From: an uncultured Gammaproteobacteria bacterium
Lineage (GTDB): Bacteria; Patescibacteriota; Microgenomatia; UBA12405
Direction of reading: 5' to 3'
Assembly: GCA_964448065.1 (NCBI GenBank)
Contig: CAYUUU010000001.1
Span: 1-43,157, forward strand
Length of the DNA: 43,157 bases
The position numbers and the translations under genes were made by a program. Positions 14,332-43,157 of this stretch are shown piece by piece (position 1 is the first letter of the stretch; each line of letters starts with the position of its first letter). A model generated the notes under the pieces. That model worked only from the letters and a program-made list of their open reading frames with translations, made no database searches and was not told the origin of the DNA.

Positions 14332-14917
14332 GAGGATAGAAAAAATTAAAAAACTTTCCTTGTTTAATAATTTTAAAATTATTTTTAATTAATAGATTTT
14401 TCATATCTAATGACGATAAAAAATAAAGTTTGGAAAATTTGGTCATAACCAAATCATGAAAATAATTCCAATAAAATTTAGCAATAGGCTTAGTATCGAT
14501 ATCTTTAATTATTAAAAAACCATTTGGTTTTAATTTTAAAAAAGCATCTTGTAAAAAGATATTTTTTTGTTGAGAATTAATATGATGGAGAAGATCAATA
14601 GCCAGAATAGCATTAAAAACCATTTTGTCTTGATTGATTAAATTAGAAGTTTTAAAAGAAACATTGGAAATATTGGTGGAAACTTTTTGAGCAATTAATA
14701 CCCTTTTGGAATTAATTTCAGAACCAATAATTTTTCGATTTTTATTTTTTAAAGCAAAGAAAATCGAAGTGAAACCATAACCACAACCAACATCTAGAAC
14801 AATACCTTTGTTGGGTAAAAGAGATTCTATTTTAGCAACTGGCAAAATTATCGATCTAAAAATTGAATAAATTTTGGGAAAAAAATAAGGATAAAGACTA
14901 ATGGTTTTTTTAATCAT
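14300..14917 (-). CDS. class I SAM-dependent methyltransferase
   Basis: Motif I VLDVGCGYG. I prefer the start at MIKKTISL (14917), which gives an ATGATTAA overlap with the upstream stop. Confidence 0.7.
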   Translation of the reverse strand: MIKKTISLYPYFFPKIYSIFRSIILPVAKIESLLPNKGIVLDVGCGYGFTSIFFALKNKNRKIIGSEINSKRVLIAQKVSTNISNVSFKTSNLINQDKMVFNAILAIDLLHHINSQQKNIFLQDAFLKLKPNGFLIIKDIDTKPIAKFYWNYFHDLVMTKFSKLYFLSSLDMKNLLIKNNFKIIKQGKFFNFFYPHVYYVCQKKS

Positions 14918-16484
14918 TTTTTTTATAAATTCTAATGGTTGGATTATCAAAAACACTCCAGGTTTCCTCAGCATTTTCATCATTTAAAAACAAAGATAAA
15001 TTATAATTAAATTGTTTAATTTGATTAAAACCAAGCTGACCAGAAAAAAGAGATTGATAATATTTTTGACTGACAGGAAAATTGGAATTATTTTGATTTT
15101 TAAAGACTCGACGAGAAGGTAGGATAATATATTCCGATTTTGATAGTTGAGTAGTTAATTGTGAGTCTAGATTAGAATCAAAATCTAAATTATAAAAATC
15201 AAAATTATTTACTTGAAGATTAGAATTGTAGACTGGTAAATTAACAACATTACCAGATTCGGATAAAATTAAAGAGGTTGAAGGAATTTGATTAATTAAC
15301 CAAATAGAAGCAATGGATCGATTATCGACCAAAAAATAACGACGACAAAAATAAATTCCTGGAAGGATGCTTAATAAGCATAAAATTAAATAAATTATTT
15401 TTGATTTAATTTTTGATAAAAAGAAAACTGTAAACAAAGGACCAATAAAAAATATTGGTGACATAAATCGAGTCCATTTTGTAAAAAGTTGTCCATTGTA
15501 TAAAAAATAAATTAGACAAGGGAAAAGAATTATTAATAATTTTTTTTTAGTAGTTAACGATATTTTTTTGAAATTGAATATAAAAAAAATAAAACCAATA
15601 ATTGAAAAAATGAAGATAAAAATACCAGAAGTATAAGGAAAAATATGAGTAAATTGAAAAATATAAGGAATAGTATTTATAAATTGACGAGTATAAAAAA
15701 CAAGAATATTACCGGTAGCAACTCCGGTTTCGTAAATCATTGAACTTTTAAAATCAGAAATTTTTAGAAAAGAAAAAGGAGTAAAAATAAAAGTAAAAAC
15801 TAAAGTTAAAAGAGATAAGGATAAAATTGAAAATAAAAATTTTTTAAACCTATGTAGAGACGCATCATGATGCGTCTCTACTAATAATGAAAAAATAAGA
15901 GAAAATAAAATTGGCAAAACAAAAAAGATGCCAGTAATTTTAGAAGCAATAGCAATGGCACTGACAAGTGCTGTTAGAAATAAATATTTTGTTTTTTGAT
16001 GATTAAAATAATTTAAGGCTAGTAAAATATTGGCTGAAAAAGCAAAAAATAAAATTGATTCGGTGGTGCCAAAATGAGCTAACTGTATTAGACCTGGAGT
16101 AAAAATTAATAAAAAAACAAAAGCTAAAAGTTCTCTCTTTTGGGGAAAAATTTTTTTAGCAATTAAATAAAAAAATAAAATTGAAAAGGAAGAAAAAATA
16201 GCTGACCAAAAACGAAGAGTTAGAGTAACATGATAAAAATCATGTTTTGGGGTAGTAAAAAAAGTTAAAAATAAAGGAAATTGATTGTAAGCAAAAAAAT
16301 TAGGATTAAGATTTTTAAAAGACATTGACAAAACAGAATTAACCATATTGTTTTCATCTGGATGGAAGAAAAAAGAATTACCCCAATTTAAACCACAAAA
16401 ACGAGTTAACAAAATACAGATTAAAACTATGTTAAAAATTAGAAAAGATTTATTTTTTTCAAAAAAATTTTTTTTAGAGGACAT
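14910..16484 (-). CDS. GT-C fold (GT39/ArnT/PMT-like) glycosyltransferase, second paralog
   Basis: Polytopic. First-loop FFHPDENNM. C-terminal AEETWSVFDNPTIRIYKK matches the paralog. The ATG at 16484 overlaps the UbiA stop. Confidence 0.6.
   Translation of the reverse strand: MSSKKNFFEKNKSFLIFNIVLICILLTRFCGLNWGNSFFFHPDENNMVNSVLSMSFKNLNPNFFAYNQFPLFLTFFTTPKHDFYHVTLTLRFWSAIFSSFSILFFYLIAKKIFPQKRELLAFVFLLIFTPGLIQLAHFGTTESILFFAFSANILLALNYFNHQKTKYLFLTALVSAIAIASKITGIFFVLPILFSLIFSLLVETHHDASLHRFKKFLFSILSLSLLTLVFTFIFTPFSFLKISDFKSSMIYETGVATGNILVFYTRQFINTIPYIFQFTHIFPYTSGIFIFIFSIIGFIFFIFNFKKISLTTKKKLLIILFPCLIYFLYNGQLFTKWTRFMSPIFFIGPLFTVFFLSKIKSKIIYLILCLLSILPGIYFCRRYFLVDNRSIASIWLINQIPSTSLILSESGNVVNLPVYNSNLQVNNFDFYNLDFDSNLDSQLTTQLSKSEYIILPSRRVFKNQNNSNFPVSQKYYQSLFSGQLGFNQIKQFNYNLSLFLNDENAEETWSVFDNPTIRIYKKND
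15854..15881. repeat. 28-nt perfect palindrome GTAGAGACGCATCATGATGCGTCTCTAC (REP-like, GTAG-headed) inside the GT-C gene
   Basis: Read directly. Translated in frame as VETHHDASL. The arms are identical to the copies at 41382 and 41926. Confidence 0.85.
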
Positions 16485-17403
16485 AGACAATGCCAATAAT
16501 TAGCAAGCCCCAAAGTAGAATAGAAAATAAAATTGGAATATCGGTGGCAGCAATCCTCTCTGGACGTTCACCTTCTTGCATTTCAAATATTATTTGGCCA
16601 TAGCGCATAATGCCAAAAATTACTGGAATTAAAGTGATCATATACCATTTACGATCAATAACATTGGGAAAATTAGTTAATAAAAAATTATGAATTTTAC
16701 CAGAACCATTAAAAGTAATAGTTTCTTCGAAAAAAGTAAACATGGCATAACAAATTAAAGTACAGACACCAAACATAGTGGTATAAAAATTAAGTAATGT
16801 TTTGCCATAACCGGATAAAGACGATCTGGTTTTGACCCCAGTATTGGCTAATTCGGTTCTTCTTTTACCACTGGCCAAAAATAGAGACAGAAAAATAACA
16901 GTTAGCATAATCCAAATTGGAAGATGATAACCGGTGGCTAATTCACCAGCAAAAGTTCTAATTATAAAGAAAAAGGCAATTCCAATAATATCAATAACCG
17001 CTTTCTTTTTAAGGAAAAATGAATAAGAAAATTGTAAAAGAATAAAAAATAAAGAAATAATAAAAAATGGAAAACTAACAAGAGAAGCAATAAATAAACC
17101 GCTTAGAAATAAACAACAAGAAACAAATATGGCTAATGGTTTGGAAATATCACCTCGAGCAATTGGCCTATTTTTTTTGAAAGGATGAAGTTTATCTTTA
17201 TTAACATCGATGACATCATTAATTAAATAAGAACATGATGATAATAAACAAAAAACAATAAAGGCAAAAATATTTTTATTTAAAATAGATAGATTAAAAA
17301 GTTGACCATTAAGAATAATTGCCGAAAAAACAGCCAAATTTTTTATCCACTGCATTGGTCGAAGAGCTTCAATTAGAGAAATTAATTTAAATTTATGATT
17401 CAT
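16474..17403 (-). CDS. UbiA-family prenyltransferase, decaprenyl-phosphate phosphoribosyltransferase-like
   Basis: N-terminal RPMQWIKNLAVF, Asp-rich NDVIDVNKD, about 8-9 TM segments. Resembles the Rv3806c-type subfamily, from memory of that family. Confidence 0.7.
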   Translation of the reverse strand: MNHKFKLISLIEALRPMQWIKNLAVFSAIILNGQLFNLSILNKNIFAFIVFCLLSSCSYLINDVIDVNKDKLHPFKKNRPIARGDISKPLAIFVSCCLFLSGLFIASLVSFPFFIISLFFILLQFSYSFFLKKKAVIDIIGIAFFFIIRTFAGELATGYHLPIWIMLTVIFLSLFLASGKRRTELANTGVKTRSSLSGYGKTLLNFYTTMFGVCTLICYAMFTFFEETITFNGSGKIHNFLLTNFPNVIDRKWYMITLIPVIFGIMRYGQIIFEMQEGERPERIAATDIPILFSILLWGLLIIGIVYVL

Positions 17404-40952: not shown

Positions 40953-41029
40953 CAGTAATAATTAAATCAATTTAAAGTATATTGATTTTTAAAAAAATTA
41001 CAATTAATTGAAAATTTACTTAAAAATAT

Positions 41030-41350
41030 CTAAAAAGAATAAACTATTTTTTCAAAATTAATAATTTTATTATTTTTATCGACTTTAATTCCCTCTTGTT
41101 TATAAAGTTGATCTCGCCATTTATTATGTTCTGGATCAAACCAAATTTTGCCACTGGAATAAACAATCCGATGAAAAGGAATTTTATCGACCTGGTCTGA
41201 TTTACCTAAAATATTAGTAATCATCCGAGATAACATAGGATGACCACCAGCAGCGGCACAAAGTAAACCATAGGTGGTAACTCGACCTGCTGGAATACTT
41301 AGGGCTAACTGAACAACTTTTTTAGAAAATTCACCTGGTTTTTGGTTCAT
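41030..41350 (-). CDS. alkyltransferase-like (ATL) protein: MGMT DNA-binding domain without the acceptor cysteine
   Basis: IPAGRVTTYG...IPFHRIV, where MGMT has PCHRV and known ATLs have PWHRV. 106 aa. Confidence 0.6.
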   Translation of the reverse strand: MNQKPGEFSKKVVQLALSIPAGRVTTYGLLCAAAGGHPMLSRMITNILGKSDQVDKIPFHRIVYSSGKIWFDPEHNKWRDQLYKQEGIKVDKNNKIINFEKIVYSF

Positions 41351-41374
41351 AGATTATTTTAATATATAGATTAT

Positions 41375-41647
41375 TTAAGATTGTAGAGACGCCCCGCGGG
41401 GCGTCTCTACAGAAGTTAACTTTATTTTTTCAGTTCTAGATAATTTTTTAATTCTAGATTCTTCTTTGGAAGCAAGTGATCTGTTTTCAAATTCTTTGGA
41501 ATAAACTAATTTTACGGGACGACGAACTTTGGTGTATTTGGCACCTAATTTAGAGCTGTTATGTTCTTTGATTCTTCTTTCTAAATCGGTGGTAATTCCA
41601 GTGTAAAGAGTTTGATCATTACACTGAATAATATAAAGAAAATACAT
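41375..41647 (-). CDS. GIY-YIG nuclease family protein (UPF0213-like)
   Basis: YFLYIIQC.DQTLYTGITTDLERRIKEHN, plus the R, E and N core. The C-terminal 12 aa (SVETPRGASLQS) are encoded by the palindrome. Confidence 0.8.
   Translation of the reverse strand: MYFLYIIQCNDQTLYTGITTDLERRIKEHNSSKLGAKYTKVRRPVKLVYSKEFENRSLASKEESRIKKLSRTEKIKLTSVETPRGASLQS
41382..41411. repeat. 30-nt perfect palindrome TGTAGAGACGCCCCGCGGGGCGTCTCTACA (REP-like, GTAG-headed)
   Basis: Read directly. Identical to 41926-41955. Confidence 0.9.
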
Positions 41648-41648
41648 T

Positions 41649-42241
41649 TTATTTTTTATAAAATTTATCTTTTTGCCAATTAATAGGGTTATTTATTATA
41701 TAGTTTTTAACTATTGATAGTTCTTTTTTGTTTTGAATAATATGATCGTAAAATCTTGATTGCCAAGAAAAAAATAAATGTTGTTGATCACAAATTCGTT
41801 TGACTGATGATTTAAATTGATTAATGACTTTAGGAATTTCTTGATTTGATTTTACATTTAATCTTTTAAAAAACTCTGGATGGTTTTGATGTGATGGAAT
41901 AATAATTGGTGATATTTGATCTTTATGTAGAGACGCCCCGCGGGGCGTCTCTACAAGAATTTCCCGTATAGTAATCAATAAATGAAGATGGTTGGGGGCA
42001 TTACCACCCAAGGGTTTATGATTAAATTATTTCGAAGGGAAATTGTTTTTAATAATTCATTTTTGGTTATTTTTCCAATTTCTGATAATTCCATTTTATT
42101 ATCAATAATTTTTCCAAAGAAATTGTTTTTATTGTAAGTACAAATAGTGATGAAATAATAGCCAGGGTTTGAATAATCCCAGTTATTTAAACGAGAAGAA
42201 TTAATTTTGTATCGATCATCAAATCGATTTTCCATTTTCAT
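41649..42241 (-). pseudogene. REP-associated tyrosine transposase (RAYT; IS200/IS605-type Y1 HUH enzyme) split by a frameshift
   Basis: Track ORFs 41975-42241 and 41649-42011 join into one protein if one C is removed from the C5 run (G5 on the + strand, 41987-41991): ...NPWVVMPNHLHLLI (HUH motif) ... WQSRFYDHIIQN (catalytic Tyr) ...NNPINW. Its ATG overlaps the rarA TGA (ATGA). Confidence 0.7.
41926..41955. repeat. 30-nt perfect palindrome TGTAGAGACGCCCCGCGGGGCGTCTCTACA inside the RAYT gene
   Basis: Read directly. Translated in frame as VETPRGASL, just after the HUH motif. Confidence 0.9.
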
Positions 42242-43157
42242 TTATTTTTTGGTTTAAAATATTTTTTACCTTTTAATTTTTCAGGTAATAAATCCTCTTT
42301 TGAATACATTTGGTAACCCTGACCATAGCCAATCTCTTTCATTAGTTTAGTTTCGGCATTGCGGAGATTAAGCGGTATTGGAAGATTACCATATTGTTGA
42401 ACATCGGCCAGAGCGGATAAATAACCCTCGTAAGCAGAACGGTCTTTGGGACTCTTGGCTAAATAAACAACTCCATGGGCTAGATTTTCCCGACACTCTG
42501 GATAACCAATGGTTTCACAGGTTCTAAAGACCTCATTGGCTAACATAAGAGCTGAGGAGTTAGCAATTCCAATATCTTCACTAGCAAAGACAACCATTCG
42601 TCTGGCAATAAACTTTGGATCTTCTCCGGCTTCGATTAGACGAGCTAGATAATAAAGAGAGGCGTCGACATTTGATGCTCTCATACTCTTAATTAATGAG
42701 CTGATAGTATTGTAATGTTCCTCCCCTTTTTTATCGAAGCGAAGAAAAGTGTTTTGAAGAGCCTGTTTAAGACTTTCGAGTTTTAAATTGCCGTATAAAG
42801 TATAGGCATTATCAAGCATAGTAATGCATTGACGAGCATCACCGTTGGCCATTTGAATAAGCCATTCCTTGGCATCTTTTTTAATTAAAACCCCTTTTTT
42901 ATCTAAACCCTTCTTTGATTTCACAATCTCCCCTAACCCCTCTTTGACAAGAGGGGGACTTAAAACAGAAACAGCCCTGTCTATTATTTGACCTATTTCT
43001 TCATCAGATAATTCTTTTAAAACAAAAACTCGGCAACGAGAAAGAAGTGGAGAGATAACTTCAAAAGAAGGGTTTTCGGTGGTGGCCCCAATTAAAATTA
43101 AAGCTCCTGATTCAACTGAAGGAAGTAAAAAATCTTGTTGAGCTTTGTTGAAACGGT
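42238..43157 (-). CDS. rarA: replication-associated recombination protein A (AAA+ ATPase), partial (N-terminus off the right edge)
   Basis: My translation upstream of the track ORF stays open: RFNKAQQDFLLPSVESGALILIGATTENPSFEVISPLLSRCRVFVLKEL... then ANGDARQ and the MgsA C-terminal domain. Confidence 0.85.
   Translation of the reverse strand, partial: RFNKAQQDFLLPSVESGALILIGATTENPSFEVISPLLSRCRVFVLKELSDEEIGQIIDRAVSVLSPPLVKEGLGEIVKSKKGLDKKGVLIKKDAKEWLIQMANGDARQCITMLDNAYTLYGNLKLESLKQALQNTFLRFDKKGEEHYNTISSLIKSMRASNVDASLYYLARLIEAGEDPKFIARRMVVFASEDIGIANSSALMLANEVFRTCETIGYPECRENLAHGVVYLAKSPKDRSAYEGYLSALADVQQYGNLPIPLNLRNAETKLMKEIGYGQGYQMYSKEDLLPEKLKGKKYFKPKNK
42923..42957. repeat. GC-rich element CAATCTCCCCTAACCCCTCTTTGACAAGAGGGGG inside rarA
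   Basis: Read directly. Translated in frame, in the opposite orientation to the metG copy, as SPPLVKEGLGEI. Confidence 0.85.

Follow-up and report, generated by a model that had tools for sequence, protein, structure and literature searches.

Subclass 2.4 of the TnpA_REP proteins, which are also called REP-associated tyrosine transposases (RAYTs; REP, repetitive extragenic palindrome), was defined by Quentin, Siguier, Chandler, and Fichant (Quentin et al., 2018; BMC Genomics 19:475, PMC6006769) and corresponds to the Group 4 RAYTs of Bertels et al. (2017; PMC5581495). Its members have a median length of 194 amino acids (aa), the motifs NH[IFV]H, WQ, and YIxNNP, a highly variable insertion between β3 and αC, and no C-terminal extension; their REPs are "long" and "double foot", with GT[AG]G at the 5′ end and C[TC]AC at the 3′ end, and the hallmark of the subclass is that REPs are inserted in frame in tnpA_REP itself, between HuH and Y (PMC6006769). 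The foot GTAGAGAC is found 25 times in the supplementary REP table of that study, for example in GTAGAGACAGGGCATTGCCCTGTCTCTAC (PMC6006769). The published view of the in-gene REP is that of a neutral insertion in a permissive loop. Here we describe a RAYT gene and three REPs in a stretch of 43,157 nucleotides (contig CAYUUU010000001.1, positions 1 to 43,157; the window), which taken as a whole are very probably a REPtron of subclass 2.4 in a genome of Candidatus Shapirobacteria.

TnpA_REP of Escherichia coli (Nunvar 2010; Ton-Hoang 2012; Messing 2012) belongs to subclass 2.2 and its structure with bound REP is available (4ER8). The region of its W motif contacts the GTAG foot (PMC6006769, citing Messing 2012). 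It shares with the window protein the HUH/Y1 fold, the GTAG-footed hairpin, the WQxRF region, and the status of a single resident gene, and differs from it in sequence (19% identity), in the motifs DHLH and YIHYNP, in a Ser-rich C-terminal tail, and in having no in-gene REP. The REPs of E. coli (REP-BIME) are imperfect, bulged, extragenic, and present in hundreds of copies, unlike those of the window. Di Nocera et al. (2013; PMC3733652) catalogued intragenic GTAG REPs in other genes and argued that these are situated where the protein tolerates them, namely in loops or at the termini. Common to these GTAG/CGTC REPs, to the Rickettsia palindromic elements, and to the REPs described here is the in-frame insertion in protein-coding genes, by which about 10 aa are added (PMC3733652). 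What sets the window REPs apart is that each is a single perfect palindrome of 28 nt and that the genome they occupy is AT-rich and reduced. Rickettsia palindromic elements are longer, about 100–150 bp, and are not known to have a transposase.

A RAYT gene of probable subclass 2.4

The window is 30% G+C and about 88% coding, and by homologue comparison its closest relatives are Candidatus Shapirobacteria of the Candidate Phyla Radiation (CPR). The RAYT gene is split into two open reading frames (ORFs), which were recognized already in the initial annotation as halves of one Y1/HUH protein; this holds, as the joined protein scores 25.3 bits with the Pfam model PF01797 (Y1_Tnp), for which the cut-off is 23. 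It has 674 homologues, and the homologue counts and frames of the RAYT protein given below refer to the best 120 of these; A1 and A2 denote two alignments. An intact orthologue of 194 aa (P0001) is encoded on a sister contig from another sample (L001), which is 98% identical over 2 kb and carries both REPs of the RAYT/GIY-YIG region.

The AlphaFold2 model of P0001 has a mean pLDDT of 83.9 with a confident HUH/Y1 core. Its best fold match among solved structures is 4ER8 (E = 2.2e-6, TM 0.51/0.59), followed by the TnpA proteins of ISDra2 and IS608, and when the family profile was compared with the sequences in the PDB, 4ER8 was the sole match. The fold is thus directly recognizable, and so are the motifs (Table 1): H82, H84, and Y178 are invariant in A2, and the Tyr of the Y motif YIINNP is invariant in both A1 and A2 and fits the published motif YIxNNP. 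The initial annotation had taken the Tyr of WQSRFYD for the catalytic one, but this segment is the W motif; alignment with Y115 of 4ER8 and the published Y motif place the catalytic Tyr in YIINNP. P0001 ends 11 residues past this motif and 16 past its Tyr and is without a C-terminal extension.

The window gene thus agrees with subclass 2.4 in length (194 aa), in WQ, in an exact YIINNP, in the absence of a C-terminal extension, in the β3-αC insert, in an in-frame GTAG...CTAC REP between HuH and Y, and in a further REP within 1 kb. It differs in its CPR host, in the position of the neighboring REP, which is in the 3′ end of another gene rather than intergenic, and in being frameshifted. As judged from its sequence, the window protein has every subclass 2.4 feature that was tested, apart from a conservative Leu in NHLH; membership here rests on motifs, architecture, and REP type. 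The earlier reading as a RAYT with its REPs is therefore borne out by 4ER8 as best fold match, by the subclass 2.4 motifs, and by a GTAG-footed palindrome both in and beside the gene.

It is very unlikely that the gene is instead an ordinary mobile element of the IS200/IS605 type (TnpA subclass 1.1), with the palindromes being its subterminal left- and right-end hairpins. The TnpA proteins of such elements (IS608, ISDra2) belong to the same HUH/Y1 superfamily and the same Pfam family, they are found among the fold matches, and hairpins are recognized in both systems, in IS200/IS605 to guide the cleavage of single-stranded DNA (ssDNA). However, these TnpA proteins are dimeric and have the motifs DH[VI]H and Y[IV]ENQ rather than NHxH and YIxNNP, and their elements are mobile and multi-copy with subterminal hairpins, whereas the window gene is a syntenic resident that has kept its chromosomal position across diverged genomes. 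Of its hairpins, one is within the ORF and another gene separates it from the second; tnpB is absent; and 4ER8 is the best match by sequence as well as by fold.

Table 1. Positions of the RAYT gene, its motifs, the REPs, and neighboring features in the window.
Feature	Position	Strand	Remarks
RAYT/TnpA_REP gene, probably subclass 2.4	41649-42241	−	split into ORFs 41975-42241 and 41649-42011 by +2 bp frameshift
HUH motif codons N-H-L-H	41982-41993	−	P, H, H invariant in A1 and A2
C5 homopolymer with frameshift	41994-41998	−	G5 on the plus strand; L001 has CCC, reading MPNH
W motif WQSRFYD	41745-41765	−	aligns to WQPRFWE of 4ER8; corresponds to GTAG-recognition region of E. coli TnpA_REP
Y motif YIINNP	41685-41702	−	catalytic Tyr codon 41700-41702; aligns to D-Y115-IYINP of 4ER8
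In-gene double-foot REP	41926-41955	−	30-nt perfect palindrome; translated VETPRGASL, in β3-αC loop
GIY-YIG nuclease gene	41375-41647	−	Pfam 3.3e-18; domain ends at residue 75 of 90; REP in 3′ end
Identical REP copy	41382-41411	−	238 nt downstream of RAYT stop; last codons (VETPRGASL-QS) and stop region of GIY-YIG gene
GT39/PMT membrane glycosyltransferase gene	14910-16496	−	contains third REP
Third REP	15853-15882	−	arms GTAGAGACGC as in the other copies; translated VETHHDASL
In-frame insertion in RarA/MgsA gene	42925-42995	−	22 aa, SPPLVKEGLGEIVKSKKGLDKKGV
G+C-rich palindrome in this insertion	42938-42957		CCCCTCTT-TGAC-AAGAGGGG; no GTAG foot

The frameshift

Between the window and the sister contig the RAYT gene shows a single difference, namely CCCCC versus CCC directly 5′ of the NHLH codons. 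Since the sister contig has CCC and an intact gene, the lesion of the window is a gain of 2 bp. The initial annotation had correctly placed the shift at a C5 run, and its "one base" is the frame-equivalent of the actual lesion; its coordinates for the run, 41987-41991, fall within the NHLH codons and have to be replaced by those in Table 1. All of the best 120 homologues read M-P-N-H in a single frame and none needs a frameshift. By this comparison the frameshift reflects either a pseudogene specific to this strain or an error of the assembly, and not programmed slippage, and the RAYT of this contig would be either inactivated or mis-assembled by the two extra C beside the HUH codons.

Programmed frameshifting, which had been left open as a possibility and by which ribosomal or transcriptional slippage at the C-run would regulate the RAYT dosage, finds some encouragement in the homopolymer and in the 37 nt by which the two ORFs overlap. 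It is nevertheless hardly probable, as the 98% identical sister contig has one intact ORF, no shift is needed at MPNH either in the best 120 homologues or in the 75 loci considered below, there is no in-frame X XXY YYZ heptamer, and the difference amounts to +2 nt.

It should be mentioned that over positions 41000-43157 the divergence of the window from L001 is patchy and clusters within portions of three genes, those for RarA, GIY-YIG, and the MGMT-like protein. Besides the 2-bp indel there are no substitutions in the RAYT gene, compared with about 2.4% overall, and other mismatch-free blocks are present. This patchiness may reflect recombination tracts.

The palindromes of the window

The exact 30-nt perfect palindrome TGTAGAGACGCCCCGCGGGGCGTCTCTACA occurs twice in the window, the two copies being 544 nt apart, one inside the RAYT gene and one at the end of the next gene, as noted before (Table 1); in none of 100 dinucleotide-preserving shuffles was this matched. 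Also the variant with the same arms that had been seen near 15854 is real. This third REP, GTAGAGACGCATCATGATGCGTCTCTAC, lies about 26 kb from the RAYT gene and has another center (CATCATGATG), which is, however, again palindromic. The 43-kb window thus contains three REP copies, with zero expected, and these are its only G+C-rich perfect palindromes. The potential to form hairpins is directly evident from the folding of each as ssDNA, with energies of −13 to −15 kcal/mol and z about −7 (−15.1 kcal/mol and z −7.4 for the in-gene copy). The putative cognate REP, GTAGAGACGCCCCGCGGGGCGTCTCTAC, is of the double-foot type, a palindrome of 28 nt with a 5′ GTAG and a 3′ CTAC foot, and is built from GTAGAGAC, 6 variable bp, and the mirror image.

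All three REPs lie within minus-strand ORFs in the frame VET...ASL, the readings being ILVETPRGASLHK in the RAYT gene, TSVETPRGASLQS-stop at the end of the GIY-YIG gene, and LLVETHHDASLHRF in the GT39/PMT gene. Since one frame of the palindrome starts with TAG, two of the three frames are open, and with about 88% coding density the intragenic placement in the VET frame is statistically unremarkable; it was therefore discarded as evidence. A scan of the whole window with Rfam at gathering thresholds gave no match, so that the hairpin does not correspond to any RNA family curated there, and a full-text literature search for the arm (GTAGAGACG/CGTCTCTAC) returned only primer noise.

The in-gene REP across the family

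In the model of P0001 the REP-encoded peptide corresponds to residues 94–102, between the HUH strand (82–89) and the helix 121–129, in a loop with pLDDT values of 52–62 over residues 90–130 and below 50 at 97–101. The REP need not harm the enzyme because it is translated as 9–10 residues of a loop predicted to be disordered. Of the 120 closest homologues, 109 have a peptide read from a REP in the segment from HUH to WQ, in the frame combinations VET/SL (71), RD/VST (26), RD/SL (6), VET/VST (5), and VET/LY (1), and in the alignment of close homologues VETxxxASL occupies one column eight residues past HUH. The occurrence of five frame combinations indicates that the conserved entity is the DNA and not the peptide. 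That VETPRGASL-type peptides are a functional protein motif with the palindromy as a by-product is for this reason extremely unlikely: VET...ASL is indeed the commonest reading (71 of 109), but other homologues translate this DNA into RD...VST, RD...SL, VET...VST, or VET...LY, the identical 28-mer recurs in genes without relation to RAYT and where the context is short or non-coding, and the segment is predicted to be disordered.

For a comparison at the DNA level 80 loci (±10 kb) were taken from GTDB species representatives, spanning the CPR, Bacteroidota, Cyanobacteria, Chloroflexota, Gammaproteobacteria, Cloacimonadota, WOR-3, Ignavibacteriales, and others, and in the 75 that were usable the HUH-WQ segment was searched for hairpins generically, without any sequence being assumed. 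An exact GTAGAGAC...GTCTCTAC palindrome was found in 38 of the 75 loci, a double-foot variant in 7, and a decayed core in 7, with no REP in the remaining 23, so that 52 of the 75 (about 69%) have a palindrome or its remnant between HUH and Tyr. The 94 full REP copies of these loci all measure 28 or 29 nt, and 70 of them are perfect palindromes. The pairs 9–14 vary freely and yet remain complementary (e.g., CGCAATGCATTGCG, CGTTGCATGCAACG, CAAGGCATGCCTTG, CGCCCCGCGGGGCG), conservation and covariation being thus directly observed in the DNA, and in most lineages the palindromy includes the central positions that are unable to pair in a hairpin. The distance of the in-gene REP from HUH ranges from 15 to 171 nt. 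Many loci, among them L060, L062, L063, L067, L116, and L117, also show the classical REPtron layout with copies just before and just after the gene, and L021 too has flanking copies. Where a locus has both in-gene and neighboring copies, they are identical or nearly so in about 11 of 18 cases and clearly different in the others, among them L116, L117, L003, and L016.

These results confirm the statement of the initial annotation that palindrome-encoded peptides of the type VET....ASL or RDAINRVS occur at this position in other phyla, and the DNA-level comparison proposed there finds the palindrome conserved. The further proposal that the in-gene hairpin is a conserved and unexplained feature stands as far as conservation is concerned; the feature is not undescribed, having been published by Quentin et al. 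(2018; PMC6006769).

It is possible, though we consider it doubtful, that the in-gene REP is a selected and maintained cis-element, serving either as a heritable master or template copy linking REP and enzyme, or in autoregulation, as a site of the RAYT mRNA or of the lagging-strand DNA to which the enzyme itself would bind. The high frequency of the in-gene copy in close homologues and distant loci is in favor of this, as is the 8-nt foot GTAGAGAC, whose retention in different phyla under five frame combinations points to conservation on the nucleic acid, together with the fixed length, the covarying 6-bp inner stem, and the resemblance of in-gene and neighboring copies in most loci that have both. 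The syntenic orthologues, at 45–76% identity, all carry a REP at this place (intact in L116 and L117, split in L115). Moreover, the foot, the length, the inner stem, and the palindromy go beyond what a hairpin alone explains; the palindromy reaches central bases that cannot pair, which would imply recognition of the duplex by a symmetric dimer or continuous arm-to-arm homogenization by template switching. The frequency in close relatives, the intact foot, and the perfect center argue for active maintenance, be it by selection, by steady homogenization, or by re-insertion. Against a cis-element or an indispensable role speak the 23 of 75 distant loci that are without a REP, including L021 with flanking arrays and no in-gene copy, the variable offset from HUH, the dissimilar in-gene and flanking copies in the four loci named above, and the fact that partial duplications and split copies are common, as expected of sloppy insertion or slippage.

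Two further arrangements were seen in the family. In the RAYT genes of L115 (4139-4268; P0016), P0008, P0020, P0053, and P0101 the REP is split or duplicated around a 60–120-nt spacer, with the GTAG and CTAC feet only at the outer ends (VETPRGASLIK...NETPRGASLH), which is REPIN-like but in frame. And in L020 (12112-13017) and L021 (9500-10900), a Bacteroidales and a Chitinophagales genome, double-foot REPs, six identical ones per array and regularly spaced at about 160–180 nt, adjoin the RAYT genes, that of L021 being the one without an in-gene REP.

The RAYT locus and REPs in other genes

Several Shapirobacteria have the gene order RarA, RAYT, GIY-YIG, MGMT-like, and large fn3 protein, with RAYTs that are only 45–76% identical. 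L115 and L116 share the order RarA-RAYT-GIY-YIG-MGMT-like, and L117 has part of it; the context is different in L002 and L114, and one relative with a 949-kb contig has two RAYT copies (L104 and L111). By sequence, this synteny fits a resident, vertically inherited gene rather than a hopping insertion sequence. 

Of 120 GIY-YIG homologues (P0243–P0353), 18 end in a tail that a REP encodes, always at one and the same position (...NLI-VET...ASL...), and among these REPs at least eight inner stems can be told apart, while the other 102 end about 10 residues earlier, at about 80 aa, without a REP tail. This suggests repeated acquisition or turnover of REPs at the 3′ end of the gene, or a target preference for it. 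On account of these tails the RAYT and the adjacent GIY-YIG gene were also considered as a functional system; the idea was dropped because the adjacency is Shapirobacteria synteny, which is absent in L002 and L114.

The polymorphism of REP insertion is directly observed in the GT39/PMT glycosyltransferase: the insert is confined to the window protein and the two relatives nearest to it, at 86% and 82% identity, and is absent from the other 117 homologues, those at ≤80% identity included, and one relative has another inner stem at the same site (RHG versus HHD). Together with the GIY-YIG tails, the comparison makes the mobility of REPs into coding DNA apparent, and both cases resemble in their behavior the intragenic REPs of Di Nocera et al. 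(PMC3733652). In the PMT orthologues P0136 and P0149 from Shapirobacteria/Woesebacteria, another short insert, PVKGGVRRTEGF, is located a few residues from the REP site of the window, and small inserts appear to have settled repeatedly in this inter-helix loop of PMT.

The exact 28-mer GTAGAGACGCCCCGCGGGGCGTCTCTAC was found at 32 places in the metagenome collection, six of them in one 949-kb Shapirobacteria contig, and others in contigs of 55–73% G+C, which must belong to other organisms. Among them L082, L087, L097, L098, L102, and L103, with 58–73% G+C, represent phylogenetically remote organisms. REPs are usually stated to be species-specific, and the presence of the same 28-mer in remote organisms is contrary to this.

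The RarA/MgsA gene upstream of RAYT has an in-frame insertion that is lacking in the orthologues of L115 and L116 and holds an unrelated palindrome (Table 1). It may represent another family of in-frame palindromic inserts in this AT-rich genome.

Proposed mode of action

By analogy with E. coli TnpA_REP (Ton-Hoang 2012; Messing 2012), the HUH/Y1 enzyme of about 194 aa would be an ssDNA endonuclease that binds the REP hairpin via the GTAG foot, which would be read by the WQxRF region, and that cuts and rejoins ssDNA, thereby spreading and maintaining REPs. One cognate REP would have settled in frame in the disordered loop of the enzyme's own gene, an identical copy in the 3′-terminal part of the gene that follows, and a sequence variant in a loop of the membrane glycosyltransferase gene. 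As the genome is about 88% coding and the operon is without intergenic space, REPs would survive only where two of the three frames read through harmlessly. The simplest reading of the in-gene REP would then be that of a passenger which the permissive loop tolerates and whose palindromy is upheld by the processes homogenizing the other REPs.

Several observations count against a functioning REPtron of subclass 2.4, or against parts of the mechanism outlined. The RAYT gene is frameshifted, which makes activity in this strain doubtful. The joined protein scores 50.1 bits with NCBIfam NF047646 (REP_Tyr_transpos), the only relevant NCBIfam match, where the cut-off is 80 bits, and on this score does not qualify as an equivalog. 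Its HUH motif is NHLH, in contrast to the published NH[IFV]H and to NHVH or NHIH in close homologues. Of the cognate REPs that were thought to flank the gene, the downstream one is there, but no REP lies upstream of the window RAYT gene; this one-sidedness is due to the lack of a RarA-RAYT spacer, the stop and start codons overlapping in ATGA, and in L116 and L117 an upstream REP does lie within the spacer. Three REPs in 43 kb and six exact copies in the related 949-kb contig are far below the classical abundance of REPs. In the three papers PMC6006769, PMC5581495, and PMC3733652 no biochemical activity is shown for any subclass 2.4 member. And a neutral passenger should decay, yet the palindrome is perfect in most lineages, even in its unpairable center, so that the "tolerated passenger" part of the explanation may be incomplete.

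Significance

The in-gene layout of the REP in RAYT genes was published in 2018, and the window copy is a new, frameshifted member from the CPR. The CPR is not mentioned in Quentin et al. (2018; PMC6006769), and our literature search found no paper linking REP/RAYT with CPR or Patescibacteria. What is new is that Candidatus Shapirobacteria have a probable subclass 2.4 member, situated at a RarA-RAYT-GIY-YIG locus that is syntenic, and that REPs are present in frame within neighboring genes. The published oddity of a transposase-derived gene that bears its own substrate hairpin in frame would thus extend to the Candidate Phyla Radiation, where the extreme gene density pushes REPs into coding sequence. 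For the annotation of metagenomic proteins this means that VETxxxASL, RDxxxxVST, and xxxRLY should be taken as read-through of REPs and not as protein motifs. With an enzyme of about 194 aa, a 28-nt perfect palindrome, and syntenic loci in many genomes, these organisms would offer a compact natural system in which to ask why subclass 2.4 RAYTs keep a REP in their own gene.

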